The notes under the pieces: model-generated
Seen by the model: the letters and a program-made list of their open reading frames with translations, nothing else
The model's database searches: none
What the model was told of the DNA's origin: nothing
Program-made: the position numbers and the translations under genes
Shown: positions 3,872-40,898 of the stretch, piece by piece
Numbering within the stretch: the first letter of the stretch is position 1
Layout: every line of letters begins with the position of its first letter
NCBI GenBank assembly: GCA_965237525.1
Contig: CBDEFO010000008.1
Location: 384,001-448,000 of the forward strand
Reading direction: 5' to 3'
DNA from: Candidatus Latescibacterota bacterium
Lineage (GTDB): Bacteria > Latescibacterota > CBDEFO01
DNA length: 64,000 nucleotides

Positions 3872-5213
3872 ATGATGAACGTTATTTTCATCGCTGTAGA
3901 CTCGTTACGGCAGGATCATGTAAGTTTCTACGGCTGGGACAATTGCCCTGTGGAGACACCTAACTTCGACAGGTTTGCAAGAGAGAGCATCGTCTTTGAA
4001 AACTGCTATCCTGAAGCGCTGCCCACCATCCCAGTTCGCACACAGTGGAAGACGGGACAGTTGCCACTATACTTTCAGACGAGGGCTATCTAACCGCCCT
4101 TTTTACCGATTGCTACCACTATTTTAAACCGAACTGTAATTTCCACCGGGATTTTAGGGTGTGGAGATGGATTCGAGGGCAGGAGTATGATCCCTATCGT
4201 TCAGGACCTTTGAAAAAATTCAAGCTCCAAGACTTCATCAACGACAAATTCCCTGACCGCGCCAAAGGCGGAATCATCTGGAGAAATCTGGTGGAGACGT
4301 GTTTGATTAACATCGAACCTTCGAGACGGGTGATGATCACTTCTGCGCTCAGTTGGTCTCTCAAGCCTCCGAGTGGCTTGAGGGTAATGAGTTGACCCTC
4401 GATAGATTCAATCGGGGGAACGATAGAGAGATATTTATGTGGGTCGACTCTTTCGATCCGCATGAACCCTGGACGCCGCCGCCAGAATTCGATAAATATA
4501 CCGACCCGGATTACAAAGGGAAACGATACATTTTGCCGCCTGGTGGTCCTTCTTCGGATTACTTCACAGAAGAGGAGATAAACTGCATACGCGGTTTATA
4601 CGCAGGAGAGGTAGCCTACGTGGATCATTATATAGGCAAACTGTTATACAAACTCGAGGAGTTGGGCTATTTCGATAACTCCCTCATAATCCTTATTTCA
4701 GATCATGGACATCCGCTCTCAGATCACGGTAAATTCCTCAAGGGTCCAGACAGGATGTACAACGAATTGTTGAAAGTGATGTTTATGATCCGCTTTCCGA
4801 AGGCAGAGTACGGTGGACAGAGATTGGACGCACTATCTCAGTTCCACGACATCCTCCCTACAATCCTGGATGCGATAGGGCTTAGGAATAACCTTGAGAC
4901 ACTTCAGGGACGGAGTCTGATGCCCCTGATAAAAGGCGAGACAAAAGAGTTCAGAGAGGCGATCGTTACGGGTTATCACGACGCTGCTGACCGCTGTATC
5001 AGAGACAAGGTATGGAGCTATATCCGCCGCCCCGATCCTGACGAGTTGTACAACCTCATAGACGACCCTCTCGAAAGGGTGAATCTCATAGACGATTATC
5101 CTCAGGAGGCTGTCAAATTGGCGTCGCTATTCGGATCGTCGTATGCCATAAGTGGAGAGCCAATTAAGGGAATCCAGGGACGCTACGAGATAGAAGGATC
5201 GGCAGCTGAATAA
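3872..5213 (+). pseudogene. Sulfatase-like hydrolase, split across three frames
   Basis: IAVDSLRQDH, TPNFD, FDPHEPW, YAGEV, ISDHG and ELYNL motifs lie in three ORFs; breaks near 4060 (apparent deletion) and 4320. Confidence 0.85.
4397..4417. repeat. 21-bp palindromic repeat, copy 3 (inside sulfatase coding sequence)
   Basis: CCTCGATAGATTCAATCGGGG, read in frame as part of TLDRFNRG. Confidence 0.75.
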
Positions 5214-5230
5214 AAGAGGGATCGGTCAAT

Positions 5231-6378: not shown

Positions 6379-6990
6379 GAGGTAGCCTACGTGGATCATT
6401 ATATAGGCAAACTGTTGTACAAACTCGAGGAGTTGGGCTATTTCGATAACTCCCTCATAATCTTTGTCTTAGATCATGAACATCCTCTTTCAGATCACGG
6501 CAAATTCCTCAAGGGTCCGGACAGGATGTATAACGAATTGTTGAAAGTGATGTTTATGATCCGCTTTCCGCAGGCAGAGTACGGTGGACAGAGATTGGAC
6601 GCACTATCTCAGTTCCGCGACATCCTCCCTACAATCCTGGACGCGATAGGGCTTAAGAACAACCTTGAGACACTTCAGGGACGGAGTCTGATGCCCCCTG
6701 ATAAAAGGCGAGACAAAAGAATTCAGAGAGGCGATCGTTACGGGTCATCACGACGCTGCTGACCGCTGTATCAGAGACAAGGTAGGGAGCTATATTCTCC
6801 GCCCTGATCCCGATCGCGACGAGTTGTACAACCTCATAGACGACCCTGGCGAAAGGGTGAATCTCATAGACGATTATCCGCAGGAGGCTGTCAAATTGCG
6901 TCGCAGTTCGGATCGTCGTATGCCATAAGTGGAAAGCCAATTAAGGGAATTCAGGGACGCTACGAGATAGAAGGGGCGGCGCCTGAATAA
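6379..6990 (+). pseudogene. Partial duplicate of the sulfatase 3' half (copy of about 4608-5213)
   Basis: Near-identical nucleotide sequence with no 5' half, an extra C at about 6697 and further indels. Confidence 0.9.
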
Positions 6991-7059
6991 AACGGTCAAG
7001 TTTAGAATATCAAGGACCGTTATACAAAATCGCATTGAAGCGATATGGGCTTGACGACC

Positions 7060-8500
7060 TCAGACGGGCAACTGCATCTGCGGTTCGCGCCGCAAGCCCG
7101 CCACGCTCGGCGTATTGAACCGCTTGCCTTCGACGATCTCTGCAACGGTGAGCATCTGCATCCTGGGGTAAGGAATGCCCAACACCTCAAGATCGCCCGC
7201 CTCGGCCATGAAGCGGTTGAAGTTCCGCGCCTTTGTCTCGCCTAGCGGCTCCATAATGATGAGCCCGGCCATGAGCGCGTCGTTGTTATCGAGTACGCCC
7301 AGGAGCGAGCGAAGGACGATGATTCCCACGTTCTTTCCGCCCTTGACCTCTATCACAAGGCTTTGCAAGTCTCGCTCGCCTAGGGCAGGCACGGCGAAGT
7401 AAAGGCGGCCGTCGATCCCCTCCGTCACCCGTAGGCCGCGACGTCACGAACCCATCCACCTGTTCGACGACCCACTTCTGAAACTGATACTTGTCGCGCT
7501 TCCATAGATCGCGTGCACCCTCCAGGTTGCGCGGTATGCCTTCGATAACGTAGTCCTTGCCAGCCTCCAGGCCGCAACGCTCCTGCAAGCGCTTTTGCGC
7601 GACTCGCTTGACGGCGTGAATGGCGATGTCAATGCCGATCCATCGCCGCCCAAGATGGTGCGCTGCTTCGAGCGTAGTGGCGCATCCGCAGAATGGGTCT
7701 AACACAAGGTCGCCTGGGTTGCTAGAAGCCTTGATAATGCGCTCTAACAAGGCTACTGGCTTCTGGGTGGCATAACCCATGCGCTCTTTGGATTGCGAGT
7801 GTAGATAGGGCAAATCCCACACATCATCCATTTTGGTGCCGCGCGCAGTATCTCGGCCTCCACGCAAATCCGTCTTGCCGTCAACACTCATAGAACGGTG
7901 GATCGTTTTTTCGCTGTAGGGTTGAAACTGGGTATTGAATACGGCCTGTTTCCCACTGCCATAACGCAATACAGTATCATGCATTCGTTGGAAATGTCTG
8001 TGGCCGGAAGGCCATCTCTTGTAATGCCAGATAATCTCGTTCCCAAAGTTCCGGTGTCCAAATATCGCGTCCATAAACACCTTGATGTAATGGCTGGCCG
8101 TCGGGTCGCAGTGCAGATAAATACTCCCCGTCGGTTTCAAGATTGACTTCATATAGAGCAGGCGTTCAGTCATGTATGATAGATAAGCCAAGAGGCGCGG
8201 CTGTGTGTTGCGCAGCGCAGTCATCCATAACCGCCAGAAATCCACAGTCGCATCGTCAATACCCGCCTCGCGCATCAAAACCGGCATGGTACGTATGGCG
8301 CGTTCGCGGTCGTCATCTAGCTCCCAGGTGTCGCAAAACGCCTCTACCTGATCGGGTAGCGGGCGTCCGGTTTCGTCCTTGTAGATGGCGTTGTAAGATC
8401 GGTTGGAGTTGAACGGCGGATCAAGGTAAATCAGATCCACGCTTGAAAATGGCATGTTCTGCATGATGGCAAGGCAATCGCCGTAGTAAAGCCGGTTCAT
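7060..8500 (-). pseudogene. Beta-class amino-methyltransferase fused to a C-terminal PD-(D/E)XK (Mrr-like) nuclease domain; +1 frameshift at about 7417-7420
   Basis: LIYLDPPF (motif IV), TQKP and LDPFCGCAT (motif I), then GIDG...IEVKGG in another frame; ATG overlaps the transposase TGA. Confidence 0.85.
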
Positions 8501-9372
8501 GCGAAGCACCCGCGCACGAAGGAGCCGAAGGCGTTGTCGTTCTCGCGCTGATTGTACTTGTAGCACGCCTCGGCAATGTAGAGGGGCATGTAGCGAGTGG
8601 AGTAATGATGATGCGACCCGTGCCACGCCCGCTTGATGAGCGACAATACGCCTTCTATCGTGCTCGTGTGGGCGAGACGTTGCGCGTAAGCCTTGCTATG
8701 GTCGATGACCAAGTGCCTAAACGCCCTCTCGATTGCGCGATAGCCCCTGTATTCGTCTGTGAGATCAGAAGGGAACCATCGGGGGTCCACAGTGCTCTTG
8801 ATGAACCGCAGGAGAGCCTTGCCCGTGAGGCCTTTGGCAACCTGCGCAACAACCCGCCCGCCGCGTTCTACAACGCCGACCACCGGGGTCTTACGCGTTC
8901 CGCGTCCGCGCGGGTTATTCCGAGGGGAAGTAGGTGAAACGTGGCGGGGGCGTCCGCCCACATAGGTCTCATCAACTTCGACGATGCCTCGAAGCAGGCC
9001 AGCTTGCGCAGAACCCATCTGCGCTCGGATGCGCACTTGCATGTAAAGAGCGGTGGACTGCACCAAGTTGAGGTCGCGGGCCAGTTGATGACTTGACAGG
9101 CTTTTTTTGGCGTTTACCATGAGGCCAATGCACAGGAACCACTTTTGGAGCGGTATCTTGGTGCCGCAAAAGACGGTGTTAGCTAGAACATTGTAGCTGC
9201 GATGGCAAGCGTGGCAGTTCCACCGGCCTATACGCTCTCCGTCTATCTTGCGCGCCACGCGGACGCTATCACAGTGCGGACAGTGCGGTTCGCTGTGCCA
9301 GCGCACCTTCTCAAGGTGCTCGATGCAGGCTTCCTGATTGGGGTAGCGGCTGAAGATGGTGAGTAAGTTCAT
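8497..9372 (-). CDS. IS1595-family DDE transposase
   Basis: Zn ribbon CPHC...CHAC, SSHQLARDL HTH, EVDETYVGG, TDEY, HTSTIEG, YIAEACYKYN; GGAGGA RBS. Confidence 0.92.
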   Translation of the reverse strand: MNLLTIFSRYPNQEACIEHLEKVRWHSEPHCPHCDSVRVARKIDGERIGRWNCHACHRSYNVLANTVFCGTKIPLQKWFLCIGLMVNAKKSLSSHQLARDLNLVQSTALYMQVRIRAQMGSAQAGLLRGIVEVDETYVGGRPRHVSPTSPRNNPRGRGTRKTPVVGVVERGGRVVAQVAKGLTGKALLRFIKSTVDPRWFPSDLTDEYRGYRAIERAFRHLVIDHSKAYAQRLAHTSTIEGVLSLIKRAWHGSHHHYSTRYMPLYIAEACYKYNQRENDNAFGSFVRGCFA

Positions 9373-9391
9373 GGCTTGTCCTCCTGCATCT

Positions 9392-9420
9392 AATATAGCA
9401 CGCGCCCTACAGAAAGTCAA
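9392..9420 (-). promoter_or_regulatory. Sigma70-type promoter for the element A operon, -35 overlapping the TIR
   Basis: TTGACT-17 bp-TATATT with an extended -10 TG. Confidence 0.65.
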
Positions 9421-9603
9421 GCCCATATCGCTTCAATGCGTAGTATCTAGAAGGACATACGAAGAACTCATACGGTCTGTCAGTCATTATCCTAATCATT
9501 TATGCTTACCCAGATGCAGAAGTATACCTTATTCATGTGTTTAACATCAGAAACAATCAGTCTAGGGAAATACTAGTATCCCTTATAAACGGAGGATAAC
9601 GCC

Positions 9604-9867
9604 ATGATATATGATGACCTTTTAGCCTTATTAGTTAGAATATCCTGTCACTTCCAGTATACTAAGATGAAACTGAGCGAGCTGTATTGCCCAGATGAAC
9701 TGCATGACGCAGATGCACTATTTGCCGATCTCAAACTCAGTGAGAGTATAGCTAACGATATTAAACATAAGCAGGCCGTGTTAGAGGAGGTTGTAAACCA
9801 GTATATAAACGGCATGCGTCTCTCCAAATCTATAATAGACAACGAAGCCAGCGACCCTACTGTCTAA
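9604..9867 (+). CDS. Hypothetical protein
   Basis: GGAGGA RBS, 87-aa ORF in an AT-rich segment. Confidence 0.5.
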   Translation: MIYDDLLALLVRISCHFQYTKMKLSELYCPDELHDADALFADLKLSESIANDIKHKQAVLEEVVNQYINGMRLSKSIIDNEASDPTV

Positions 9868-10122
9868 GATAGATATGGATTCTCCGATAGAAAGGGTAAG
9901 GACACAGACAACTGCCGCCTAGACCTACATGTAGCAACGCTGTTAATCCAGGACCGTCGCCTGATCCTCGATCTGCGGCTGTGCATATGTCAGTCCGAAG
10001 ACGGTATTTCAACACCAATCTGGTCGCTACCCTTAATGCGTGGCATCTATCGCACCGAGGTTCCGTCCCCGTCCCACCAAGTAATCAGACTGCGTTACGC
10101 CTCCTCCCGACTGTTCCCGGTT

Positions 10123-10629
10123 CTATTCCGAACCCCCGCACGGAGGTGATGCAGGCAACACGCCGTTCTTCAGCCATCGCACGAGCGCCTTGCCGGGATC
10201 GGCGATCTCCTCAACCGAGCCGTACCAGTAGGCTTCCCAACCCGTCTCCGGCAGACCCGTAAACAACATCAGATTGAGGGGATAGACCTCGCTATCGGTG
10301 CAGCGGCGAAAGTCGTCCCGGAACAGGAACACCGGCTTGTCCCAAGCAATCGCCATGCCCAGTTCCACCATCACTCCCTCGTCCGGGGGGCAACCGTTGA
10401 CCACCGCGAACAACCCCTCGGCCTGCCGCACATCCCGGAGATCGGCCTGGCCGATTTCATAGACCCAGCCCGGACTGGCACGGGCGATCTGGTTGTTACG
10501 CGCGAACGGCTCCCAGACTTCGGCCCCCAGCGCCTCCAGAGCCGCTACAATCTCTCCCAACGGCCCAGCGCACTGCTGCAGGGAGAAACCATAGGGGTTG
10601 GCCAGATAAAGAGTCTTTTTCGATGTCAT
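10123..10629 (-). CDS. Nucleoside 2-deoxyribosyltransferase family protein
   Basis: LYLANPYGFS, WEPF, DLRDV, PPDEGVMVELGMAIAWDKPVF, NLML motifs. Confidence 0.88.
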   Translation of the reverse strand: MTSKKTLYLANPYGFSLQQCAGPLGEIVAALEALGAEVWEPFARNNQIARASPGWVYEIGQADLRDVRQAEGLFAVVNGCPPDEGVMVELGMAIAWDKPVFLFRDDFRRCTDSEVYPLNLMLFTGLPETGWEAYWYGSVEEIADPGKALVRWLKNGVLPASPPCGGSE

Positions 10630-10736
10630 GTTCGAGTCCCTGGACTTAAGCATCCGCGAATTCATCAGCCAAGCACAACGGGTAAATTGCGGGTAGCGGC
10701 ATTCCGAGATCGGCGAAACAAGGATAGCAAGCAGAA

Positions 10737-12359
10737 CGCATTGAAGCGATATGAGCTTGACGACCTCAGACGGGCAACTGCGTCTGTGGTTCGCGTCGCA
10801 AGCTCGCCACGCTCGGCGTATTGAACCGCTTGCCTTCGACAATCTCTGCAACGGTGAGCATCTGCATCCTGGGGTAAGGAATGCCCAACACCTCAAGATC
10901 GCCCACCTCGGCCATGAAGCGGTTGAAGTTGTGCGCTTTCGTTTCCCCCAACGGCTCCATGACGATGAGCCCAGCCATGAGCGCGTCGTCATTGTCGAGC
11001 ACGCAACGCAACGCGCGAAGGTCGTGGATGCTGACGTTCTTGCCGCCCTTGACTTCGATGACCATGCTTTGTAGCTCGCGTTCTCCTGGCACGTCGCAGT
11101 AAACACGCCCGTCAATACCGCCGTCGCCCGTGCGCCGCGATGTTACAAAGCCGTCTACCTGTTCGACGGCCCACTTTTGGAAGTGATACTTGTCTCGCTC
11201 CCATAGGTCGCGCGGTATGCCTTCGATAACGTAGTCCTTGCCAGCCTCCAGGCCGCAACGCTCCTGCAAGCGCTTTTGCGCGACTCGCTTGACGGCGTGA
11301 ATGGCGATGTCAATGCCGATCCATCGCCGCCCAAGATGGTGCGCTGCTTCGAGCGTAGTGGCGCATCCGCAGAATGGGTCTAACACAAGGTCGCCTGGGT
11401 TGCTAGAAGCCTTGATAATGCGCTCTAACAAGGCTACTGGCTTCTGGGTGGCATAACCCATGCGCTCTGAGCCTAGCGCGGGGCCGATGTCATGCCAAAT
11501 GTCATTCGGGGCTATTCCCTTGCCGGGCCTCTGCTTTCTCCAAACCACATCGTCTATAAACTCTAATTCGCCTTCTTCGTCTAAGGTAATAAGGCGGTCT
11601 TTGCTTGTAGTCCATCCCGATTTGTGAGGTGGGTATATCCCTTTGTATTCATAGCAAAGATTGGGGCGCTCACCTAGTCCGGGTGGACGAAATGGGCTCC
11701 TTCGCTTGTAGGGGCCTTTCTCATCGAGGCAAGGAAAGTCTGTCTCTATGTTTTTGTATGGGGTCATGATTTCAGTCCTTGTAACTCTATGCCCCCCCCG
11801 ACTTTGAGTAGAAAAGAACCCTATCGCTTGACCGCCCAAAGCCCTTTGCCTTGTGTTGGCTCCCTTTTCCAGCGCCTTTAATTCGCTCCCATGCGATTTC
11901 GTTCCTGAAGTTGTCATGCCCGAATATCGCATCCATTAGCACCTTGATGTAATGGCTGGCCGTCGGGTCGCAGTGCAGATAAATACTCCCCGTCGGTTTC
12001 AAGATTGACTTCATATAGAGCAAGCGTTCAGTCATGTATGATAGATAAGCCAAGAGGCGCGGCTGTGTGTTACGCAGCGCAGTCATCCATAACCGCCAGA
12101 AATCCACAGTCGCATCGTCAATACCCGCCTCGCGCATCAAAACCGGCATGGTACGTATGGCGCGTTCGCGGTCGTCATCTAGCTCCCAGGTGTCGCAAAA
12201 TGCCTCTATCTGATCGGGTAGCGGGCGTCCGGTTTCGTCCTTGTAGATGGCGTTGTAATATCGATTGGAGTTGAAGGGCGGATCAAGATAGATCAGATCC
12301 ACGCTCATCAACGGCATGCTTTGCATGATAGTAAGGCAGTCGCCGTAGTAGAGCCGGTT
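10737..12359 (-). mobile_element. One-ended relative of element A (element A')
   Basis: TIR at 10737-10761 matches element A at 24/25 positions, followed by a paralogous methyltransferase-nuclease gene; no transposase or second TIR seen. Confidence 0.8.
10766..12359 (-). pseudogene. Paralogous methyltransferase-PD-(D/E)XK fusion with a different target-recognition region; frameshift at a G8 tract (11792-11799)
   Basis: N- and C-terminal blocks are near-identical to 7060-8500 while the centre is unrelated; the ATG of MNRLYYGD is missing. Confidence 0.85.
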
Positions 12360-12848
12360 GCCACCGGAGCTTCCGCGCCTGCTTGATTTTCTTCCGACAA
12401 TCCTTACGTGCTTCGTCAACGATCTCGTTGCGGGTACCGCGAAATGTCCTCTCTGTGGCTTGGCAATCCCATCGAGCCTTCCGATAGGCTTCCTCCAATC
12501 GCTTCACCTTGCCAGTTGCGGATAGCCGTAGATCGCGGGCCTCGCGAGCCTCCCGGTTTCTTTCGATCTGGGCGGCGTCGGCGTCAATAAAATACTGTGC
12601 TATAGAGGTGCCAGACCTAGTGATATCCTCAGCAGTAAATCGAGGGTTGCGCCACGAAGTTCTGGCTGTGGCCCATGCCTTCTCTTGATTGACGAATGAA
12701 GAGAGAGCGGATGCATTGATATTCGGGCCGCGTCCGCCCGCTGCGATCACGCCAGCTTCCACCAGCTTCGCGCTACCGACGGCCTGAATCTGACTTGCGG
12801 CTTGGTTCCAATTAAAAGTTCCTTCTGGTATTTGTTCTTCTGGCATTG
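12283..12848 (-). CDS. Hypothetical protein (coiled, basic C-terminus); the 3' end runs into element A'
   Basis: GGAG RBS before MPEEQ; no recognised family. Confidence 0.45.
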
Positions 12849-12974
12849 GTGTCTCCTCCGGTAGGACTTCTTTGTCAAGCACTTTGCTCAGTTTCAATAT
12901 AAGCTCTTTGTCGAAATTGAGCTTTTTTCTCTTTCTCCTGTCGCTGCAGGTTTTCCCGCATAGCCCTTAAAAAC

Positions 12975-13898
12975 TCAGGAGTCTTCAGCAACTCCTTCGT
13001 CTTCGTCGCGTTCTGGGTTTTCTGTACTTGTTCGTTCGCCTTCGTTGTCTGTTGCATTTTCTTCTCCTTTACTCCCGTCCAATCTTGCGGAATAATTGTC
13101 GTCCTGGTGAGGATCGATAAACTTTCTAATCGCATTCCACAGGGACCTTATGTTATCCGAGGGGTCTTCGACTCTTGAAAAAAGTTTTTTTGCCTCAATT
13201 CTGTCGATTACAAATCCATGGGCAGGATAACCTTCTACTAACGAATTAACCGTACTAAGACTTGCATTTCCCCCTCGTTCCACCAGTCTTTGCCCGTATG
13301 CCTTGGCAACATTCAGATCCCTTAAGTCGCTTCCTAAAGCCTCTGGATCGATTTGCGCATAGACAGGCTGCATAACCGCTGTAGCAATATTTGACGCAAT
13401 TTTAGATGCGACCTCAAAGCTGACCGAGTGTCGGCTTTGGGTCGTTATAGCCCACCTCACCTGTTCATATATGGTTAACGTTTCATCCGCTAATCCTGCA
13501 AGTGCCGTCCGAACTATCAGGCCTGATCTTCTTTGCCCAATTTCATCTCGTTTTACGAGTTGCACATCGAGCGGGCCAAGTTCAGCTAATTCGTCCATCA
13601 TAATTATATTGGCACCTAATGCGATAATTGTTCCCGCACTTTTACATCTGGTTGGGACAAATAGGTAAAAGGTTTTAAAGGTAGTCTGGAACAGCCTTGC
13701 TATTTTATAAGCAATATGCGCACTTCCTCCATTTGTTGCCAGAATTAGAAAGACATTATCTTTAGGCTCATCAGATGAATATATGGATTCCATTAGACGC
13801 AGCATGCTGTCCTCATCAATGGGGCCTGTATATACAGCAACATGGGCGTCGAGATCGGCGGAAACTACGTTAGCAGCTTCTCTGATTTTAGGGTGCAT
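12975..13898 (-). CDS. SDH-family ClpP/SppA-fold serine protease
   Basis: LILATNGGS, CKSAGTIIALGA, ELGPLDVQ, YPAHGFVID. Confidence 0.85.
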   Translation of the reverse strand: MHPKIREAANVVSADLDAHVAVYTGPIDEDSMLRLMESIYSSDEPKDNVFLILATNGGSAHIAYKIARLFQTTFKTFYLFVPTRCKSAGTIIALGANIIMMDELAELGPLDVQLVKRDEIGQRRSGLIVRTALAGLADETLTIYEQVRWAITTQSRHSVSFEVASKIASNIATAVMQPVYAQIDPEALGSDLRDLNVAKAYGQRLVERGGNASLSTVNSLVEGYPAHGFVIDRIEAKKLFSRVEDPSDNIRSLWNAIRKFIDPHQDDNYSARLDGSKGEENATDNEGERTSTENPERDEDEGVAEDS

Positions 13899-14133
13899 TT
13901 TGTTTGTCCTGTTGTGCATGCCACCTGGCGCTGGCAGCCGTCTGTGCAATCTCAGTGCGCCTTTCGTCCGTTATTTTGCCATGCAGAGCCGCAGCACCAG
14001 CCTTACCGCCCTTGACCTTGTTCGGCTGCTTGTACCCCTCATCTTCAACCTCACCCGTGGCTATCTTAGCTACCTTTACTGCACAGCCGACCGCGTCCGC
14101 AGGCCGACGCACTCCTCTTGGTCCTTTAGGCAT
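13888..14133 (-). CDS. Small basic protein of the type often found beside IS1-like transposases
   Basis: MPKGPRG..RPAD..G.AVKV..IATGE...GGKA.A....ERR.EIA..AA.ARW pattern, recognised from memory. Confidence 0.7.
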   Translation of the reverse strand: MPKGPRGVRRPADAVGCAVKVAKIATGEVEDEGYKQPNKVKGGKAGAAALHGKITDERRTEIAQTAASARWHAQQDKQNAP

Positions 14134-14312
14134 CCGGAGCAACCTCCCTTGAAGTTTGGGGAGCCAATAATATCAGGGCCATCATTCTCAATGACAAGCT
14201 AAATCTAACCTGGTTCCCCATTTCAACCGAAAGGTGGGTGGTAAATGGTTTACTTAATAAACCTTTTCTTGTCAAGGGCAAAAAAAGTGTAGGTGAATTC
14301 CCCCTAGGCCAA

Positions 14313-14331
14313 TTCAAACTGAGACACTACC
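14313..14331 (-). mobile_element. Isolated IS1-like terminal repeat
   Basis: Reverse complement GGTAGTGTCTCAGTTTGAA; it marks the compositional junction next to the terminase 3' end. Confidence 0.5.
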
Positions 14332-14366
14332 GGCTTGTCTAATGTAAGTGAAACGGTGTAAGCCCC

Positions 14367-15290
14367 TTATATTGTCATCCAGTTATAGTTATCTTCTTTT
14401 TTCTGGTGAGTGCTTAAAGATTCCCAATTAACGGTTTTATCGTAGGGAGAACTTATGTTAGTAAGTGCCTTCTCACAAGCATCCCATACGTCGTAGTGAT
14501 GACCTCCGCGTGGTCTCTCAACAGGGAAATCATACGCCTCATCCTTAAGTATCTCAGCACTGGAGGGCTTGACAAGAACCTGTTCCTCTCTAAAGAACGG
14601 CATGATAGACCTTATACGCGCTATCTTGTCAGTAGATTCAACTATGATCTTCTTGTCAATATATATCTCCCTCTTAAGCTCCTCTACTCTTAACCACTGC
14701 AAGACAGCATCCATAGCGTTCTTCTCAAAGATAAACCTCGGTCTATTAAACTTCTCCCTAAGGACAAAAATAAGCTCTATAGCATCGACAACATCTATCC
14801 TGACCTTTGTTATATCATCGAGGTACTTCTGTCCGTTCCACTGCATATGAAGAGGAACAAACGCCGAGAAGTTTGATCTCTTGTTCTTGGTGAATCCCAG
14901 GTCTACACCTATTGTCGTAGCAACGGGTATCCGAGTATCTCCTGTTTCATCTACTTTCGATAAGTAGCCATTCCCACCAGACGTAGGATGCTTCTCAAAG
15001 TCAAGATCGTGATAGTGAGATAGATAGCTCTCTGGAATCTCTATATCGTCAGACCCCCTTGACCTATTTTCATACTCCCTGTAATAAGTCTTGAGATTGT
15101 TTCGAAGTTCATAGTCCTTCTTGATCTGAGCTATCCGCGCATTGCTAAATTTCTTAGGCCAGATACTCTGTCCATTCTCATCAATATTCCTGTAGAATAG
15201 ACCCTGCCACATCATTCCAGGTTTAGACTTAGGCAAATCATCAGCATATCTTTGACCTACCTGTCTGCCAGTGGCAGCCTTCCAAAGATT
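14367..15290 (-). pseudogene. terL: Phage terminase large subunit, C-terminal (nuclease) part
   Basis: IWPKKF, YYREYEN, IGVDLG, IFEKN and HYDVWDA motifs; in frame with 17810-18465 once the IS is removed. Confidence 0.88.
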
Positions 15291-15312
15291 GGGAATAATA
15301 TACTTAACGCCA

Positions 15313-15993
15313 CTAAATGATTCTCGTGCGTTTCTCGTATAGTCGGCCTATCTCATCTGATTTGACCCTGAACTTAACCCCGTGATCTCTCACCGCGCCT
15401 GATTCCTTGATGTATGCATCGAAGTCCACTATCACGAGGCCCCTTTCAATCGACCGCATGAGGCCCGACAGCTTGATTTGTTCGTAGGCCGTGGCGTGTT
15501 CGTATTTCACTTGACGTGGATTCCGCTTTATTTGCCCCGTTACAAGAATCAGACGGCTCAACTTCCTGCCCGCCGCGTTCAGTAGATCGTCTTCCGTCCA
15601 GCAGACCTCCGGATTCATCCCTTCTTCATGGCGCACCCAAATAGACCCGGCATCGTAGGCGATGTTGAAGCCCCTGTCTGATTCGCCCTCGATTGTATGT
15701 CGAAAGGATGGGCGTCCGTTCCTTCCCTTCCAGCCGAATTTGTTGATGATGAACTTCATCGAGCCTTTGGGCCTTGGCGTCTTGTGAAATAGCGTAATGA
15801 GCGCGGTGCCGCTTGAGTATTTCAACTCGAAGGTTCCGGCGTCGGGAATGTCCACGTTTGAGGTTTCGAGGCCCAGGAGACTTTCGAGAAGACGACCTGG
15901 TGCGCCGGAGCCTTGATAGTCGCTCGGTAAATCCCGCCATCCGCTCTTGCACAATTCCCGCACTTGGTCGAACAGGGCCGTTCTCGAGGTCAT
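15313..15993 (-). CDS. MvaI/BcnI-family restriction endonuclease
   Basis: G..G.LLESLLGL...N..IPD...FELK, LITLFHK.P and RDHG.KFR signature. Confidence 0.85.
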   Translation of the reverse strand: MTSRTALFDQVRELCKSGWRDLPSDYQGSGAPGRLLESLLGLETSNVDIPDAGTFELKYSSGTALITLFHKTPRPKGSMKFIINKFGWKGRNGRPSFRHTIEGESDRGFNIAYDAGSIWVRHEEGMNPEVCWTEDDLLNAAGRKLSRLILVTGQIKRNPRQVKYEHATAYEQIKLSGLMRSIERGLVIVDFDAYIKESGAVRDHGVKFRVKSDEIGRLYEKRTRII

Positions 15994-16802
15994 TTCAGTT
16001 TCCGATACGCCGCCAGCCTCTCATCCGCTAGGCGACAATATCTTTTGCTCTTTTCGATACCGATCCATTCCCTTCCCTCAGATTCCGCCGCGATCGCGGT
16101 CGTGCCGCTTCCCATGAAGGGGTCAAGCACGATTTTCCCCGTGGTGGAGCCGATGCACCTTTGAGCTAACTCCGTAGGGAATGGGGCAGGATGGGGGTTG
16201 TTGGATTCTTGGGGGATTTCCCAGATGTCGCCGACGGCGTTCGCCTTGGGAGCAAGCTGAAACTCCGGCTTGGCGATAAGGTAAATGACTTCGTAGGTGG
16301 GGAGAAAATAGCCTTTGTTGAAATTGATGCCGCCCTTGCGTCGCCAGATGATGATCTGGCGGACGGGGAAGTCCTCAACGATATCGCTCCGGTCTTGGAG
16401 AAAGCCGCCTTGGACGCGCCACTTGTGGTTGTAGAAAATAGCCCCGCTCTCCTTGATTAGTCGCATCATGGCCTTGAGGCCTTTCCTTTGCCACTTCACG
16501 TACTCATCATGCGGCATACAATCTTCGTGTTCCTCGTAGCCCTTAATGAGCGCGGCATTCGGCCACTTGCCACCGCTCCCGTTCTTCATGCCGTTTCCAG
16601 TGGATTGCTTGAGGTTGTAGGGTGGAGAGGTAACGATCAAGTCGATGGAAAGCGCGGGGATTTTGTTCATCAATTCGACAGTATCCCCTTCATGCACCTT
16701 GCCGAGCCATCGGCTCATCGCGTTTTCGGAAAGGGTCTGCGCTCCGGCTTTCAGCAATCCATCGAACGACAAGGGGATTTGTACCCTTTGCGCGTTGGTC
16801 AT
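15990..16802 (-). CDS. Beta-class N4-cytosine/N6-adenine DNA methyltransferase
   Basis: IVTSPPY, HPAPFP, VLDPFMGSGTT; ATGA overlaps with both neighbouring genes. Confidence 0.92.
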   Translation of the reverse strand: MTNAQRVQIPLSFDGLLKAGAQTLSENAMSRWLGKVHEGDTVELMNKIPALSIDLIVTSPPYNLKQSTGNGMKNGSGGKWPNAALIKGYEEHEDCMPHDEYVKWQRKGLKAMMRLIKESGAIFYNHKWRVQGGFLQDRSDIVEDFPVRQIIIWRRKGGINFNKGYFLPTYEVIYLIAKPEFQLAPKANAVGDIWEIPQESNNPHPAPFPTELAQRCIGSTTGKIVLDPFMGSGTTAIAAESEGREWIGIEKSKRYCRLADERLAAYRKLK

Positions 16803-17716
16803 GTAATCAAAGCCTTGTAGGTCAAGCGGGAGCCAAAGCCGCTTTCGAGCATAGAATCCATGCGCTGGCCGCCAGCGGAGCCATTCAGGTTCCATCGGAA
16901 GGCAAACTCTGAGAGGTAGCGGTTCAGGTGCTTCCATGAGAACTGGTGAAACACGCCATTGTAGCCGCGCTTGAGCATTGACCAGAAGCTCTCGATTCCG
17001 TTCGTATGGGCCTTGTCCCGCACATATTCGCCCATGATGTGAACAACGAACTCATGGTCATAGAACTCACCCAAGCCCCTGTAACTTCGATGATCGTCCG
17101 TGTAAACCGTGGAGCCTAGCAACACGTTATCTTCGATGAATCCGACCATCGTGTTCCTGTCTGTCATGGAAATCTTCTGCGCGAACACATTACCTTCACG
17201 CGAGCGCACGCCGATAGCGACATCCTTGCCCGCAGGCCCGCGTCCGGCCTTGGCCTTCTTGGAGTTGTGCTTGTTCTTCTCTTTGCCGCCCAAATAAGTT
17301 TCGTCCGCTTCCACTTCCCCGTTCATGGGCGGGGAGTTTTCGAGCGCGGTTTCAGCCGCCTTGCGGAGACGCCCGAGCATGAACCACGCCGTCTTTTGAC
17401 TCACGCCCACTTCCCGCGCTAGTTGATAGCTACTGATTCCCTTGCGGTTCGAGGTAACGAGCCAAGCGGCCATAAACCACTTGCGGAGAGGAAGTCTTGA
17501 TTCCTCATAGATCGTGCCCTTGCGGATACTGAACTCATCCCCGCAATCTGAGCACTTGTAGACGCCTACACGCTTGCGGCTGTAGATTTTCCCAGCGCAT
17601 CCGCACAAGGGACATATCTTTCCGGCGGGCCAGCGAAGTTCTTCAAGGTGGGCCACGCAAGCGGCCTCATCTGGGAAGGCTTCTAGCATTTGAAGCAGTG
17701 TGTCATAATTCTTCAT
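16799..17716 (-). CDS. IS1595-family DDE transposase (intact)
   Basis: CPLC...CSDC, GISSYQLAREVGVSQKTAWFML, EADETYLGG, YTDD, HTNGIESFW, YLSEFAFRWN. Confidence 0.95.
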   Translation of the reverse strand: MKNYDTLLQMLEAFPDEAACVAHLEELRWPAGKICPLCGCAGKIYSRKRVGVYKCSDCGDEFSIRKGTIYEESRLPLRKWFMAAWLVTSNRKGISSYQLAREVGVSQKTAWFMLGRLRKAAETALENSPPMNGEVEADETYLGGKEKNKHNSKKAKAGRGPAGKDVAIGVRSREGNVFAQKISMTDRNTMVGFIEDNVLLGSTVYTDDHRSYRGLGEFYDHEFVVHIMGEYVRDKAHTNGIESFWSMLKRGYNGVFHQFSWKHLNRYLSEFAFRWNLNGSAGGQRMDSMLESGFGSRLTYKALIT

Positions 17717-17809
17717 GTCTTGATTCTCCGCAATTTAGTGGTGTTCTGTCAAGCAACCCTATACCACTAATATATTGCATTATGCGGTGGTGTCAAGTAT
17801 ATTATTCCC

Positions 17810-18465
17810 CAAAGATTAGATAATAAAGATTCCTCATGTAGAACGGTCCCTCCTATAACTATTTTACCCTCATAGGAAGGCAATACAGTTCCATCAAGCC
17901 AGTCAGATAACTTAGCTCTTGAGTCAGCAGTTCCAGTATTAGCCTCATTTTCCAGATCGTCACATATTATAAGATCAGGTCTCTTTCCTAACTTTAGAGA
18001 CCCTCTCACTTGTTGACCAGCACCTTTAGCCCTAATAGTAATCCCATTAGAAGTTACTATTTCCTTCTCAGTCCACTTGCCAACCCCTAAGCCATCCCAA
18101 TTCCTCTTAGCTACAAAATTACCAAAGAGTTTGATTACGAGCTTATTAGTCTCCATCTCATTTTTAGCAGCCTCTAGAAAGTCAACAGAAGCTGGCAGGG
18201 TATCAGATATTATCATGATAAACTCACGCTCTTCAAAGAGAGCCTGATGTAAGATATAGACAAAGCTGAGTATTGTAGACTTGGCACGTGCTCGCGGGGC
18301 TACATAGATAGACCTCTCGTGATTTTCGAGTATATGACTATATATTTCCTTGTGGAAGTTAGGCACACCATATTTCTTCTGTATCCTATGAGGGAATAGA
18401 ATCATAGAGAACAGTGCAAGATCATCGTGCAGTTTCTTGAGATTGGTGTTCCCTATTGCTGTCAA
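17810..18465 (-). pseudogene. terL: Phage terminase large subunit, N-terminal ATPase part
   Basis: Walker A-like APRARAKST, GAGQQVRG, Walker B RPDLIICDDLE, GTVLH. Confidence 0.9.
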
Positions 18466-18881
18466 GGCACCTTCCTGTCGGTAAAAGTGATATTTCCCTG
18501 ATCTGCCCTGCGATCCAGAATCTTAACTTTCTTTTTTACTTCGTCACGCCATCCCTTATATGGACCTGGATTATCAATCAAGATTAGATTCAGGATTATG
18601 TCGCTCGCTACATGTATGGATTCAGGGTAGTCTATCTTGTATGTAACCTCGTTATTGGCTACTAACTTATTGAATACTATGTCTAAGGGTGAGGACTCCT
18701 GATCCTTATCACACACATTTACAGTCAGACGAAAAGCACCATTGTCACCATCCCTAAGTTTGTAGGATATCCTCACTTCCCTTGCCTGTGTTATCCGGTG
18801 TATCAAGTTCTTTAGCTGGAGGGGAGTCAGGGAATTCATCTTCTTTGCCATCATCTTCCTCGTGAAGTACGAACTCTGCAT
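18462..18881 (-). CDS. Phage hypothetical protein between putative terS and terL (start uncertain)
   Basis: Stop overlaps the terL start (TTGA); same AT-rich composition. Confidence 0.55.
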   Translation of the reverse strand: MQSSYFTRKMMAKKMNSLTPLQLKNLIHRITQAREVRISYKLRDGDNGAFRLTVNVCDKDQESSPLDIVFNKLVANNEVTYKIDYPESIHVASDIILNLILIDNPGPYKGWRDEVKKKVKILDRRADQGNITFTDRKVP

Positions 18882-19497
18882 CTTCTATCCTATCCCCAAG
18901 TCCTCGTAAAAGGCTATCCCTATCCTCATTTGTCTTAAGAACATCTTCTCTATAAGACTTGAGAGCTCTAAGAGCTTCCAGTTGACTAGGCTTATTACCT
19001 TCTTCTACCATACGTTTTAAATTAGTGAGGAAATACTTATCATCAATATTTAGCTCGCTCAGCATTCCCTTCATTCTTTTTTCTATTTCAGACTGCACAT
19101 CCGGTTGATTAAACACTCGCCTAGCCCTCTTTTTCCAAGAGTCAGTATTAGTGGTATATACCCTAGAAAACGCCTTATAAACGTCGAAGAAAATAGTATA
19201 CTGACGAGCAAATTCTTTGCGCTTGATAGTAGTGTGGATTTGTTTGGGATCGGATTTAGGCTCATGGGTCTTATCAATATACATTCCCTTTCTGGCCCTT
19301 ACCATATACTGACCCGTAATGGTACACACAAAACCTGGGGCAATCTTAAGTACCTCAAGAACTTTGCCACAGTCAGAGATAACCCAATCACCTGGCTGGC
19401 CAAGCCTCCAGTCTCTCTTTACATCAAGTTGATTGTCATGAGTGGCTTCTATCAGGTTCTCGTAAACCTTGCGCCCTTTTACCAGTTTCATATCCAT
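18754..19497 (-). CDS. Putative phage terminase small subunit
   Basis: Upstream of terL; HTH-like KRKEFARQY...KAFSRVY...VFNQPDVQSEI followed by a helical oligomerisation-like region. Confidence 0.55.
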   Translation of the reverse strand: MDMKLVKGRKVYENLIEATHDNQLDVKRDWRLGQPGDWVISDCGKVLEVLKIAPGFVCTITGQYMVRARKGMYIDKTHEPKSDPKQIHTTIKRKEFARQYTIFFDVYKAFSRVYTTNTDSWKKRARRVFNQPDVQSEIEKRMKGMLSELNIDDKYFLTNLKRMVEEGNKPSQLEALRALKSYREDVLKTNEDRDSLLRGLGDRIEDAEFVLHEEDDGKEDEFPDSPPAKELDTPDNTGKGSEDILQT

Positions 19498-20184: not shown

Positions 20185-20217
20185 AAAAACTTTACATAAT
20201 AAAAGGGAATTATATAC

Positions 20218-20246
20218 TTGACTCCACCTAATTCTTTCAGTATCTT
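20218..20246 (+). promoter_or_regulatory. Sigma70-type promoter with -35 inside the element C TIR
   Basis: TTGACT-17 bp-TATCTT, then a GAGGGGG RBS. Confidence 0.6.
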
Positions 20247-20269
20247 TACTCGGTAACGAGGGGGTGTAT

Positions 20270-21198
20270 ATGTCAAGTAAGACTCTGAGTTTATTTGAGT
20301 TAATGCAGATTTCCCCAGATGCCAAAAGCGCGAGAGAATATCTCGAATCAAGAGGATGGAAGGAACATACCATTTGCCCGCTCTGCGGTGATTATGAGCG
20401 CATCACCGCGAGAGGCGGGAAGCGCACTGGATATTATCGCTGTCGCGACTGTAACGAAGAGTTCACTGTGCGCACCAAAACCATCTTTGAGCGTTCCCAT
20501 GTTCCTCTTCATAAGTGGATATACACCATGTACATGGTGGTTACGGCTCGGAAAGGCGTCTCTTCCCTTCAGATGTCCAAAGAGATTGGCGTCACTCAGA
20601 AGACGGCGTGGTTCATGTTGCAGCGCCTCCGGGAAGCATGTGGCGACGATCTCTCGAAGCTGAATGGCATCGTTGAAATAGACGAACCCTATGTTGGCGG
20701 CAAGGAGGCCAACAAGCACGCATCGAAGAAGCTCCGAGCGGGGCGGGGAACAGTGGGGAAACAGGCCGTCTTGGGTTTTCGCGAGCGTGATGGCAAGTCA
20801 GTGGCGCGTCCGATTGCAGGCACGAACAGTGCCGTTCTTCATCGAGAAGTCGCCAAGACGGTTGAGTTGAGTTAGGCTCTGCGATTCATACTGACGACCA
20901 TCTCGGCTATCAGGCGCTTCTCGGCTATATTCACAAGCACATCCGTCACGGTGCAGGGGAGTATGTAGGCTCTGGCGATGTTACAACCAACAGCGTCGAG
21001 AGCATGTGGGCACTTTTCAAGCGCGGACTCTATGGCACATGGCATCAGGTCAGCCGGAAACATCTGGCGCGATATGTGAACGAATGCACGTTCCGCCTGA
21101 ATGAGGGCAATGTCAGATTCGATACCAAGGATCGACTGAACAGCTTCGCTGATCGCGCCTTTGGCCGTCGTCTCACCTATGCAAGGTTGACTGCGTGA
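20270..21198 (+). pseudogene. IS1595-family transposase, frameshifted by a 5-bp tandem duplication
   Basis: CPLC...CRDC, GVTQKTAWFML, EIDEPYVGG; GTTGA-GTTGA at 20861-20870; continues HTDD...TNSVESMW...YVNECTFRLN. Confidence 0.9.
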
Positions 21199-22274
21199 GC
21201 CCTCTACGAAAGCAAGTTCCAAAGGAGCTTGATCGAATTGTCGATCAAGTGCTTACCTACAACTGTCCAGCAGACAGGTCGGAAGACTTCCGCTTCATCG
21301 ACCTGTTCGCCGGGATCGGCGGAATGCGCCGCCCGTTTGAGGAAATCGGCGGGCGTTGCGTGTTCACGTCAGAGTGGGATCGGTTCTGCAAGGAAACCTA
21401 CACCGCGAACTTCCCGGAGCCAGCAGACAGCGATCACGAGTTCATTGGTGACATACGGCCTTGTGCGGTGAATCCGGAAACCGTGCCGACACATGATGTT
21501 GTGTTGGCCGGGTTCCCGTGCCAACCGTTTTCGATAGCCGGTGTGTCGAAAAAGAATTCGCTCGGTCATCCTCACGGCTTCCTGTGCGATACGCAGGGAA
21601 CGCTCTTCTACGATCTGGCAAAGATCATCGACTACCATCGGCCCTCGGCCTTTCTCCTTGAGAATGTGAAGAACCTTGCCCGGCATGACGGTGGTCGGAC
21701 ATTCACAACAATCATGCAGGTTCTTGAAAGTGAGCTTGGCTACAATGTGAGCACCCGAATCGTGAATTCCTCTCCGTGGGTCCCACAGAAGCGCGAACGG
21801 ATTTTCATGGTAGGGTTCAGGCAAAAGACGGCCTTTGATTTCGACGAACTGGCAATACCGACAGGTTGTGCACCGACTCTCGGAGCCATCCTCGATACGG
21901 ATGTTGACCCCAAGTACACACTCACCAAGCACATGTGGAATTACCTTCAGGGCTACAAGAAAAAGCATCGGGACGCAGGCAACGGGTTCGGCTATTCGCT
22001 GTTCGGCCCTGATGATGTTGCCCGCACTCTCTCTGCCCGCTACCATAAGGACGGATCGGAGATACTCATCAGACACAGGGGCAGGCGTCCCCGCCGCCTG
22101 ACCCCGCGAGAATGCGCACGTCTGATGGGATTCGAGAAACCCGGCAAGGCTGAGTTCAGGATTCCGGTGTCCGACACCCAAGCCTATCGACAGTTCGGCA
22201 ACGCCGTGGTTGTTCCCACTGTGCGGGCCGTGGCCCGACTCATGAGGCCCCACATTTCCATGAACCAGGCGTGA
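21195..22274 (+). CDS. dcm: DNA (cytosine-5) methyltransferase, Dcm/M.EcoRII-like
   Basis: FIDLFAGIGG, GFPCQPFS, LLENVKN, PQKRERIF, RTLSARYHKDGSEIL, QAYRQFGNAV. Confidence 0.95.
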   Translation: MSPLRKQVPKELDRIVDQVLTYNCPADRSEDFRFIDLFAGIGGMRRPFEEIGGRCVFTSEWDRFCKETYTANFPEPADSDHEFIGDIRPCAVNPETVPTHDVVLAGFPCQPFSIAGVSKKNSLGHPHGFLCDTQGTLFYDLAKIIDYHRPSAFLLENVKNLARHDGGRTFTTIMQVLESELGYNVSTRIVNSSPWVPQKRERIFMVGFRQKTAFDFDELAIPTGCAPTLGAILDTDVDPKYTLTKHMWNYLQGYKKKHRDAGNGFGYSLFGPDDVARTLSARYHKDGSEILIRHRGRRPRRLTPRECARLMGFEKPGKAEFRIPVSDTQAYRQFGNAVVVPTVRAVARLMRPHISMNQA

Positions 22275-22285
22275 CCAACTGATTC

Positions 22286-22759
22286 ATGGCTGCCGATAGT
22301 GTGACGCCGGATGTTCGCAGTCGGATGATGGCCGGGATCAGGGGCAAGAATACGAAACCGGAGTTGGCAATCCGGTCTGCATTGCATTGCCTCGGTTTCC
22401 GGTTTCGCCTACACCGCAAGGATCTGCCGGGAAAGCCCGACCTAGTGTTCGCGAAGCACAAGGCGGTGATTTTCGTTCACGGGTGTTTCTGGCACGGCCA
22501 TGACTGCCACCTGTTTAAATGGCCGAAGACCAAGGGTGAATTTTGGAAACAGAAGATCAATTCAAACATCGCGCGGGATCGCAAGCAGCTATTGGCCCTC
22601 GCGGACAGCGGATGGCGTGTGGCGGCGATCTGGGAATGCGCTCTCAAAGGCCGGACGCGCCTTCCGATTGAGGTAATCGCAGAGCGTTGCGCGATTTGGC
22701 TGGAATCGAACGAAAACGAACTGAGGTTGAGCGGTGATGAAACGTGGACAGCTGCGTGA
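22286..22759 (+). CDS. vsr: Very short patch repair endonuclease
   Basis: RSRMMAGIRGKNTKPE, LPGKPD, FVHGCFWHGH, IWEC. Confidence 0.95.
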   Translation: MAADSVTPDVRSRMMAGIRGKNTKPELAIRSALHCLGFRFRLHRKDLPGKPDLVFAKHKAVIFVHGCFWHGHDCHLFKWPKTKGEFWKQKINSNIARDRKQLLALADSGWRVAAIWECALKGRTRLPIEVIAERCAIWLESNENELRLSGDETWTAA

Positions 22760-23967
22760 CTATTTTGCTGGGGTGGGCGTAAAGAGGCTGTCTGCCGTGG
22801 ATGCCGACTCTACAAGATCAAGATCAAACCAGCACGAGGTGGGTACCACGTTAGACATGCGACGTCAGTTTCTTGGCGAGGATGATAAAACCCGATTTCC
22901 GGTGGTTTATGTCTGGCTGGGTCAGGAGCAGGACGGCTTTACAGCCCAAGGCGATGCGACTCATTACGATGCACGGGCAATGAAGACCGACCGGGGACCG
23001 GAGTGGCGTCTCTACTATTCTTCCAATCCGGTCACGGAAGCCATGCAGAAAGGCGACACGCTGTTTCTGGCGTTGACAACCGACCGGGTTCTCTACTTTG
23101 TCGTCGCGCCGGCAGGCTCGACCAGCGAACGGGAACTCTCCTGGCTCTTTAGTTTACACCCCGCTGGGATATCCTTCGTGTCGCGCGAGTTCGACGACGA
23201 CGAGCGGGAACTGGACTTTGCAGCCCGTTTCCTATTTGACGAGATTGGAATGGAGTTCGAGGAGCGGGACGCGGACAGACTTGACAGCATCATCGACAGG
23301 TTCGGCACGGCGTTTCCGAAAACTGTGGAGTTCTCGGATCTTGCCCGCCGTACCCTGTCTGAGGTTAGGGCCGAGGACGATCCCGATATAGCGCTTGTGG
23401 CTTGGATAGACCACGAGGAAGCGCTGTTTCGGCGTCTTGAACGACGGATTGTAGCGACACGTCTTGAGGAAGGATTTATCGATGGGAACGGGACCGATGT
23501 GGACGGTTTCATGCGGTTCTCGCTGAGTGTCCAGAACAGAAGAAAGTCGCGCATGGGTCATTCTCTGGAGCATCATCTGGAGGAGGTATTTCGAGCCTAC
23601 GACATTACGCATGTTCGTGGTGCCGTGACTGAGAACAACCAAAAGCCGGATTTTCTGTTTCCCAGCAAGGAAGCCTATCGGGCCGCTCCGGAAACCGGCG
23701 ATGCATGCCTGACCATGTTGGGGGCCAAATCCACCTGCAAGGATCGCTGGAGGCAGGTCCTAGCCGAAGCGGCGAAGATACCGAGAAAGCATCTTCTGAC
23801 GCTTGAACGAGGCATTTCCGAGCCGCAGACAACCCAGATGGCGAATTCAAGACCTGCAACTCGTTGTACCGCAATCGCGTCAGGGTAGCTATACGGACGA
23901 CCAACGGGCTTGGCTTTGGAATCTTGCGGAGTTCATTCGAGACGTAGAGGCTCGCGCGTGCAAGTAG
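22737..23967 (+). pseudogene. EcoRII-like type II restriction endonuclease, +1 frameshift at about 23850
   Basis: SNQHE, QNRRKSRMGHSLE, KPDFLFP, GAKSTCKDRWRQVL; the alternative frame gives DLQLVVP...WNLAEFI ending at TAG 23967. Confidence 0.88.
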
Positions 23968-40315: not shown

Positions 40316-40426
40316 CCTAATATCAGCACAGTATGTATCTCAAGTCTTTGTCGCGACAGACAGCTTCAAACCGAATTCGGAATAACAACAACAAGAGGAA
40401 GCAGGAAAAACCAAGGAGGAAAGACA

Positions 40427-40873: not shown

Positions 40874-40898
40874 TGAAAGAGGGCAGCCAAAGTAGCTA

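Follow-up and report, generated by a model that had tools for sequence, protein, structure and literature searches.

Probable exchange of a predicted base-reading cassette between methylase-nuclease genes carried by IS1595-family transposons

In a few pathogens, chromosomal restriction-modification (R-M) genes of Types I, IIG and III are established cases of recognition-domain swapping. The Type III mod genes of H. pylori are described as undergoing 'TRD movement' (TRD, target recognition domain; Furuta & Kobayashi 2012, PMC3467074), modA alleles of Neisseria and Haemophilus as exchanging TRDs or DNA recognition domains (DRD; PMC3311624), and motifs were assigned to Type III TRD groups by single-molecule real-time sequencing (SMRT; PMC3983042). 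TRD alleles of Type IIG enzymes have been described as well, as have R-M genes lying inside inverted repeats with an 8-bp duplication (PMC2853133). Here we describe exchange of this kind in a large transposon-borne family, represented in a 64,000-nt stretch of a Candidatus Latescibacterota genome (assembly GCA_965237525.1, contig CBDEFO010000008.1, positions 384,001 to 448,000; this whole stretch is called the window, and positions are given in its coordinates). The window holds two paralogous genes, copies A and B; a third copy, absent from the earlier note on this DNA, lies elsewhere in the source genome G000 (C8:357668-360222). We take the three to belong to a widespread IS1595 family whose passenger joins a beta-class methyltransferase to an Mrr-type nuclease fold, and whose predicted base-reading cassette is exchanged by ordinary homologous recombination, which would give a new target; we put the probability of this reading at roughly three in four.

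Copies A and B have a common body with unrelated blocks in its middle, and their parts are laid out as follows.

7060-8500, minus strand: gene of copy A, a predicted DNA methylase-nuclease
8061..8500, minus strand: N-terminal methyltransferase part of A (PF01555; motif IV DPPF at 8422-8411; IYLHCD at 8122-8105); 93% identity to B
7788..8060, minus strand: variable cassette of A, class a, with NEIIW, the loop-45 equivalent (8020-7985), the motif VIII strand, the TRD and the loop-6F equivalent (7807-7793); 49% GC (guanine plus cytosine)
7524..7787, minus strand: 264-bp common block of A, with ERMGYATQKP, motif I DPFCGCA and motifs II-III
7060..7523, minus strand: C-terminal domain of A with a predicted Mrr-type nuclease fold, cut off by a one-base frameshift near 7417
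10766 to ~12362, minus strand: gene of copy B, a predicted DNA methylase-nuclease, start codon uncertain
11923..12362, minus strand: N-terminal methyltransferase part of B; the upstream neighbours are unrelated genes and include no transposase
11469..11922, minus strand: variable cassette of B, class b, identical in the third copy; ~50% GC
11792..11799, minus strand: tract of eight G (G8) that frameshifts B and the third copy
11205..11468, minus strand: 264-bp common block of B, identical to A
10766..11204, minus strand: C-terminal domain of B with a predicted Mrr-type nuclease fold; GGIDG...EVKGG intact; 78% identity to A's

In pairwise alignment the 5' parts of A and B are 93.1% identical over 464 bp, and on the other side of the block a perfect 264-bp repeat (7524-7787 and 11205-11468), identical in all three copies, begins at ERMGYATQKP. 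The block itself measures 273 nt in A; that of B, at 454 nt, is longer by 60 codons and one G. Its two versions align no better than shuffled sequence, both in DNA (score 19, shuffle mean 17.9, 101 of 300 shuffles as high) and in protein (score 29, shuffle mean 26.0, 107 of 500 as high), and have in common only the skeleton HD/SD-x-VL-x-Y ... PY ... D-x-W; they are 17% identical, though the flanks are 93% and 100% identical. The earlier note had claimed near-identity up to HYIKV and again from ERMGYATQKP through motif I, with an unrelated segment of different length between, and all of this was confirmed: breakpoint mapping by pairwise alignment found a block with sharp borders and not a divergence spread uniformly along the genes. 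A three-way alignment with the third copy places the 5' crossover between 8069 and 8060 (between DAIF and G) and the 3' border at 7788/7787; the 3' border had been given correctly, but the left coordinates (8078 in A) were about 18 nt too wide.

The third copy joins the ends of A's IS1595 element to the block of B, letter for letter, and its transposase is broken. Other mosaic tracts that change partner among the three copies lie in the transposase (~8890-8545), in two N-terminal patches and in the nuclease domain (7508-7199), the C-terminal nuclease domains of A and B being 78% identical in amino acids. The swapped block is thus only one among several such tracts, which gives no sign of a device dedicated to shuffling.

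Both alleles are supported by contigs from several read runs, none of whose records spans the whole stretch; contigs cannot phase combinations and drop rare variants. In run X1 gap-free contigs cover block A (7758-8107) at depth 9.6, block B (11439-11969) at 16.6 and the 264-bp repeat (7529-7787) at 27.3; the ratio of about 1:2:3 is expected from three copies arranged as in the assembly, contig depth being a rough guide only. Contigs over both blocks or parts of them are also present in X2, X4, X7 and X8 (the source sample may be X1 or X2; another study supplied X4 and X8), and in X4 and X8 both blocks are present with at most one letter changed. Other samples carry other combinations, namely B's upstream DNA with an A-type start (X4) and the transposase type of the third copy (X7). 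In the sponge metatranscriptome run X13, whose contigs cannot show transcription, contigs lie over the transposase, the 3' end of A and the flanks, and none is listed over either block.

The closest solved protein by both sequence and fold is M.BceJIV bound to DNA, in which the bases are contacted by loop-45 (M136-G138), the TRD (167-194) and loop-6F (R203, H205, Q207), with one subunit's TRD and its partner's loops reading the same site (PMC11380664). These contact parts align to residues ~161-171, 194-222 and 232-236 of A, respectively. The block of A extends from residue ~148 to 238, holds all three parts and ends two residues past the last. The earlier note had placed the TRD in this region; by the M.BceJIV alignment the block includes, besides the TRD, loop-45, motif VIII and loop-6F, and we therefore predict that the exchanged unit is the whole base-reading module together with the motif VIII strand, not the TRD alone. 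Since TRD and loops from different subunits read one site, joint movement would be favoured. The M.BceJIV structure, together with precedent, suggests that swapped cassettes would confer new recognition sequences. The model of an intact class-b relative (L160) keeps the scaffold, and its longer block forms a confident subdomain (block means of the predicted local distance difference test, pLDDT, 89-96 over residues 181-280) with both loops disordered without DNA. In a whole-chain Foldseek search the class-b model matched only beta-class methylases, EcoP15I Mod first (root-mean-square deviation, rmsd, 16).

The family shows the same pattern on a larger scale. All family counts are among the matches listed; 271 of the 280 distinct proteins were parsed (9 unparsed), and block classes were set at a threshold of 50% identity. 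There are 56 block classes among the 271 parsed proteins, and the collection of further alleles proposed in the earlier note yielded 43 of them in 124 loci chosen by N-terminus alone. Each of the two local blocks belongs to an older class found in other bodies. The A block is 70-74% identical to the cassettes of P0001, P0002, P0003, P0005 and P0006, where the flanks are ~80% identical; for the B block, cassettes with 52-65% identity lie in methylase-Mrr and methylase-HNH proteins, many of them ending in HNH, and the N-termini of these proteins are mostly 29-66% identical. The converse case also occurs: methylase-HNH proteins (P0151, P0157) and methylase-Mrr proteins (P0145, P0154, P0155, P0158) have blocks 90-94% identical in flanks 48-52% identical. 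Where N-termini are at least 90% identical, the blocks are unrelated in 22 of 31 lineages, as against 5 of 31 in which the nuclease part is less than 75% identical, and in the 15 pairs with close flanks and unrelated blocks that were inspected the borders lie at NEI.W and ER.GY.

Trees of block and flank are incongruent. The flank tree had 69 rows, taken from classes with at least three members, with the largest limited to 8 and near-copies first thinned from 188 to 161. On this tree the block classes require 49 changes; shuffles averaged 53.2, with 7 of 200 as low, and the minimum is 13. Approximately unbiased (AU) tests on 26 rows rejected a flank clade for class a (p 0.003) and for class b (p 0.014), and also a block clade of A plus B (p 0.0002); quick trees and no mixture model were used, and as the classes are defined by block identity, their monophyly in the block tree holds by construction. 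Besides A/B there are two independent recent swaps, L027/L030 and L167/L195, the latter within a single genome (G064) with flanks 96%, nuclease part 96% and blocks 28% identical. In these three pairs 0.11-0.15 of the same-residue codons differ, and one further pair is intermediate. Taken together, the sharp borders, the incongruent block and flank trees, the blocks in unrelated bodies and the two further recent swaps give good support to recombination in the conserved flanks as the way in which the recognition region is exchanged, in agreement with what the earlier note had supposed. G064 itself (L167, L169, L195) holds five family copies including two tandem pairs, and no IS1595 transposase was detected next to L167 and L169. 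In one of the tandem pairs the two copies agree in the first half of the block and not in the second, and one copy has a class-b block.

The protein has the motif order of beta-class methyltransferases (IV-VIII, TRD, X, I-III), with DPPF at residue 27, TQKP at 245 and DPFCGCA at 268, and matches PF01555; the top fold match is again M.BceJIV (Z 25.8, rmsd 2.7, 239 aligned). The methyltransferase and the nuclease domain lie in one polypeptide, with recognition central and the nuclease C-terminal. For the nuclease domain we relied on the intact relative P0003 (structure model pLDDT 83.8), whose C-terminal domain resembles the nuclease domains of AspBHI (Z 9.4, rmsd 3.0, 120 aligned), LlaBIII (8.2) and MspJI (7.7), which we take to be Mrr-type. 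PF04471 is on record for some family members, and A's isolated domain had no match in Pfam, PADLOC or NCBIfam; its assignment follows from the P0003 fold and the motifs. The C-terminal domain of the family is accordingly predicted to be a PD-(D/E)xK nuclease of Mrr-type fold and may be active. In copy A an extra base near 7417, lacking in X4 and X9, keeps the methylase motifs and loses the nuclease frame, so that A may be a lone methylase; in B and the third copy the frame shifts at the G8 tract, with a stop just after. The local copies are decaying.

Several observations speak against the reading given above. Firstly, the flank tree is weakly resolved, with 31 of 66 branches poorly supported, and near-copies had been thinned beforehand. 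Secondly, most exchanges are old: among the 37 DNA pairs that combine close flanks with unrelated blocks, only 3 are clearly recent and 33 lie near saturation at synonymous sites (0.41-0.65). Thirdly, genome G061 has 22 matches, and all 20 loci examined carry one block class in an element of 2.4 kb that is 99.4-100% identical where intact; amplification alone thus does not diversify the block, and a donor is needed. Fourthly, since the nuclease domains of A and B differ (78%), overwriting of the flanks by conversion fits as well as the dropping in of a cassette. Finally, motif I is FCGCA in 190 and FCGCG in 64 of the 271 proteins, where the canonical form is FxGxG (the motif is conserved), and all three local copies are frameshifted. 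The interpretation in the earlier note is thus supported in part: the exchange stands, but the mosaic is messier than was proposed, the local genes are damaged, B is a remnant and the unit is wider than the TRD.

The ends of the elements are as follows.

9416..9440, minus strand: left terminal inverted repeat of element A (25 bp), a perfect match to 7031-7055; the third copy has the same ends
8497..9372, minus strand: IS1595-family DDE transposase (291 aa; PF12762, PF12760; NF033547 above cut-off)
7031..7055, minus strand: right terminal inverted repeat of element A
10736..10761, minus strand: right terminal inverted repeat after copy B, one mismatch

Element A is 2.4 kb long and consists of the inverted repeats, the IS1595 transposase and the methylase gene, the stop of the former overlapping the start of the latter. 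A and the third copy are complete IS1595 transporter insertion sequences (transporter IS, tIS). Both local paralogues had been called IS-borne, which is right for A, but copy B is a remnant with a right repeat only: neither a left repeat nor an upstream transposase was found in 10600-15400 or by a genome-wide repeat search. An 8-bp target duplication is absent at A and at the third copy, also when swapped flanks among the three copies are included. No res gene lies inside the repeats of element A, which ends 5 nt past the methylase-nuclease stop codon, and for this reason the element is not a Type III R-M system. Compared with the third copy, A's transposase has small indels at 8761-8785 that jointly preserve the frame and produce an odd stretch just before TDEY; at 8761 a form shorter by 2 nt occurs in X4 and X13.

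In the family an IS1595 transposase ends at most 60 nt upstream of the methylase in 126 of the 156 loci whose sequence extends far enough; collapsing the multi-copy genome gives 107 of 137. Of 160 loci 143 have the C-terminal domain, and terminal repeats were found in 58 of the 83 tested. Target duplications of 8 bp were found at 5 of 24 loci from multi-copy genomes (most of the 24 from one genome) as against 25 of 36 other loci, a deficit that is expected if copies recombine. Genes are intact in 113 of 123 distinct complete cases, and 236 of 238 retain the nuclease motif. The named hosts belong to at least seven phyla; at E 1e-40, 8 of 61 genomes (G000 included) have matches and the same-genus genome G001 has none, and a single plasmid record in PLSDB matched, at 48%. 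At L104 and L106, inverted copies in one chromosome, the 8 bp to the right of one copy equal the 8 bp to the left of the other, as after recombination between copies.

We propose the following mechanism. Copies, or a copy and an incoming relative, would pair in the conserved DNA that encodes HCDPTASHYIK..DAIFG..NEI.W on one side and ER.GY.TQKP..DPFCGC on the other. The block would be too divergent to pair, crossovers would fall outside it, and it would move whole, so that loop-45, TRD and loop-6F would travel jointly and give a matched reading set in one step. Provided that the fused nuclease is active and that the same module directs it, marking and cutting would change jointly; a swap would then need not be lethal, and novel specificities could be selected, as with Type III mod alleles. 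The transposon would supply copy number and travel across phyla, not the swap itself. We further speculate that a one-chain R-M enzyme, made of a beta-class methylase and a C-terminal Mrr or HNH nuclease, may serve as a socket in which whole DNA-reading modules fit between two conserved motifs, and that such modules, dozens in number, circulate among transposon copies and across Mrr and HNH fusions; we regard this wider proposal as tentative and, on balance, somewhat doubtful.

The least improbable alternative is that diversifying selection made the block diverge rapidly where it stands, and that two old paralogues had their flanks homogenised only later, with no traffic of cassettes between lineages. 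It would account for the perfect 264-bp block, which resembles a recent conversion tract, for the difference of A and B in the nuclease domain too, and for the unequal ages of the flank segments (same-residue codon differences 0.13, 0.0 and 0.30). However, each block has partners 65-74% identical in other bodies, and blocks 90-94% identical occur in flanks only ~50% identical. Blocks within a class are 65-90% identical at saturated synonymous sites, a comparison that is partly circular as pairs were picked by block identity. In close pairs block identity is bimodal, with 157 pairs below 50%, 8 at 50-80% and 93 above 80% (258 non-independent pairs). Moreover, homogenisation of flanks is itself recombination and leads to the same product. 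The tree incongruence largely refutes divergence in place at the family level, and we consider this explanation unlikely.

A programmed switch, by site-specific recombination between copies or by slipped-strand ON/OFF at the G tract, is brought to mind by the variable length of that tract, by the other combinations in other samples (X4, X7), and by the mod genes of H. pylori, which have poly-G near recombination sites and repeat-driven truncation (PMC3467074). The tract at 11792-11799 has 8 G here and 9 G in X4 and X8, an X7 contig ends at it, and 7 G would match the length of intact relatives. Both lengths are out of frame, though, and no in-frame tract was present in the runs compared; only 5 of 123 family genes contain a G/C run of at least 7, which leaves a family-wide phase switch at G tracts unsupported. 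Crossovers also lie in the transposase, the N-terminus and the nuclease domain. The surroundings of B (10600-15400) yielded neither a recombinase nor an inverted spare cassette, and on this ground a shufflon or dedicated recombinase was rejected. Such a switch is in our view quite improbable.

Exchange that is real and of no consequence would be expected in a neutral patchwork among decaying copies, in which blocks differ in sequence and not in function, in a tolerant loop. That all three local copies are broken, and that mosaic blocks run all along the element, would fit this picture. Against it, the block maps onto those elements of a solved DNA complex that read the bases, the class-b model has it as a confident subdomain (pLDDT 89-96), classes are conserved across phyla, and lineages in which the block is unrelated far outnumber those in which the nuclease domain is, so that we give the neutral patchwork very little credence. 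An assembly artefact, with strains or repeats merged into chimeric genes, might be suspected from near-identical repeats 3.7 kb apart in a metagenome-assembled genome and from the homopolymer frameshifts, but it is practically dismissed by the gap-free X1 contigs at ~1:2:3 depth, the presence of both blocks in other runs (contigs for both came from several, on which ground a chimera was rejected) and the same pattern in other genomes.

Other features of the window and of its genome are given here for completeness. A second IS1595 element (15291-17809, 23-bp inverted repeats) carries a beta-class methyltransferase (15990-16937) and an MvaI/BcnI restriction endonuclease (15313-15993), i.e. its passenger is a two-gene R-M system; terminase-like open reading frames (ORFs) lie on both sides of it (14367-19497; Terminase_2 at 18754-19497 weak, below cut-off), possibly a prophage remnant split by the IS. 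A third repeat-bounded element (20200-24067, 26-bp inverted repeats) encodes a C5 cytosine methyltransferase (21195-22274); its IS1595-like transposase ORF is truncated. Further IS1595 elements with DNA-modification cargo are present in G000 at C7:176.8-179.3 kb, C3:255-258.5 kb, C4:59.1-61.1 kb and C4:173.9 kb; the cargo comprises a family member that is broken, shares 55% identity with A and has a separate central block, then two methylase-HNH genes in the vicinity of IS1595 transposases, and a long fusion of methylase type. Upstream of B (12283-14142) there are an unassigned ORF that overlaps the start of B, an SDH/Clp-like serine protease (PF01972) and a small ORF with MPKGPRG, relatives of which are also found beside some G061 copies. 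The 3' part of a sulfatase-like gene is present twice (4608-5215 and 6379-6992), the second copy being degenerate and lying just outside the right end of element A. Four copies of a partly palindromic 29-nt repeat occur (2330, 3259, 4389, 5223), and the direct repeats at 40377-42220 are nested, with ankyrin-like units of 99 nt and a tandem repeat of 18 nt (41752-41913).

If the wider proposal is true, one recombination event would reprogramme marking and cutting, and the elements would be self-spreading generators of new methylomes in symbiont communities; they would also be a natural library of interchangeable specificities for enzyme engineering. Exchange of this kind would also help to explain differences in methylome and restriction barrier between close strains in dense communities such as sponge microbiomes. 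The methylases are small beta-class enzymes, in which modular specificity is easily testable with one body and many natural cassettes.

It is useful to compare the family with described systems. The orphan or Type II beta-class adenine methyltransferases M.BceJIV, CcrM and M.RsrI (PDB 8URK, 6PBD, 1EG2) are alike in fold, motif order and the positions of loop-45, TRD and loop-6F. They are without the Mrr-type domain and the transposon, and the A family differs from them by an extra helical insert (~residues 60-120) and by its motif I, FCGCA or FCGCG. Type IIG/IIL enzymes (MmeI, BpuSI) resemble the family in that methyltransferase and nuclease share one chain and allelic diversity is confined to the recognition region. 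Enzymes of the MmeI/BpuSI type use gamma- or alpha-class methylases. BpuSI is described as having an N-terminal nuclease and C-terminal recognition; its domain order is not that of the A family, which is beta-class with central recognition and a C-terminal nuclease. The transporter IS of the IS1595 family (MTnSag1, tISCpe8; PMC5704250) are alike in their DDE transposase, inverted repeats of ~25 bp, 8-bp duplication (seen in relatives) and single passenger gene; the passenger of the A family differs, being a methyltransferase-nuclease fusion with a hypervariable cassette.

The closest likeness in behaviour is to the Type III mod genes. Both have a beta-class methyltransferase with a central variable block between conserved flanks, en-bloc replacement via flanking motifs, incongruent trees of block and flank, blocks conserved within a class, lower GC in the block, and truncations at mononucleotide runs. 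The A family differs in being the passenger of a multi-copy IS1595 transposon, with ~480-560 aa and no adjacent res gene, in carrying its own C-terminal fold, predicted as an Mrr-type nuclease (HNH in sister proteins), and in exchange that spans phyla and fusion types. No account of an IS1595-borne methylase-nuclease family or of its cassette exchange was found in the literature covered, most subscription journals being outside that coverage. The exchange of recognition modules is in itself already known from Type III mod and modA; for its setting in a transposon-borne family the literature searched held no precedent.

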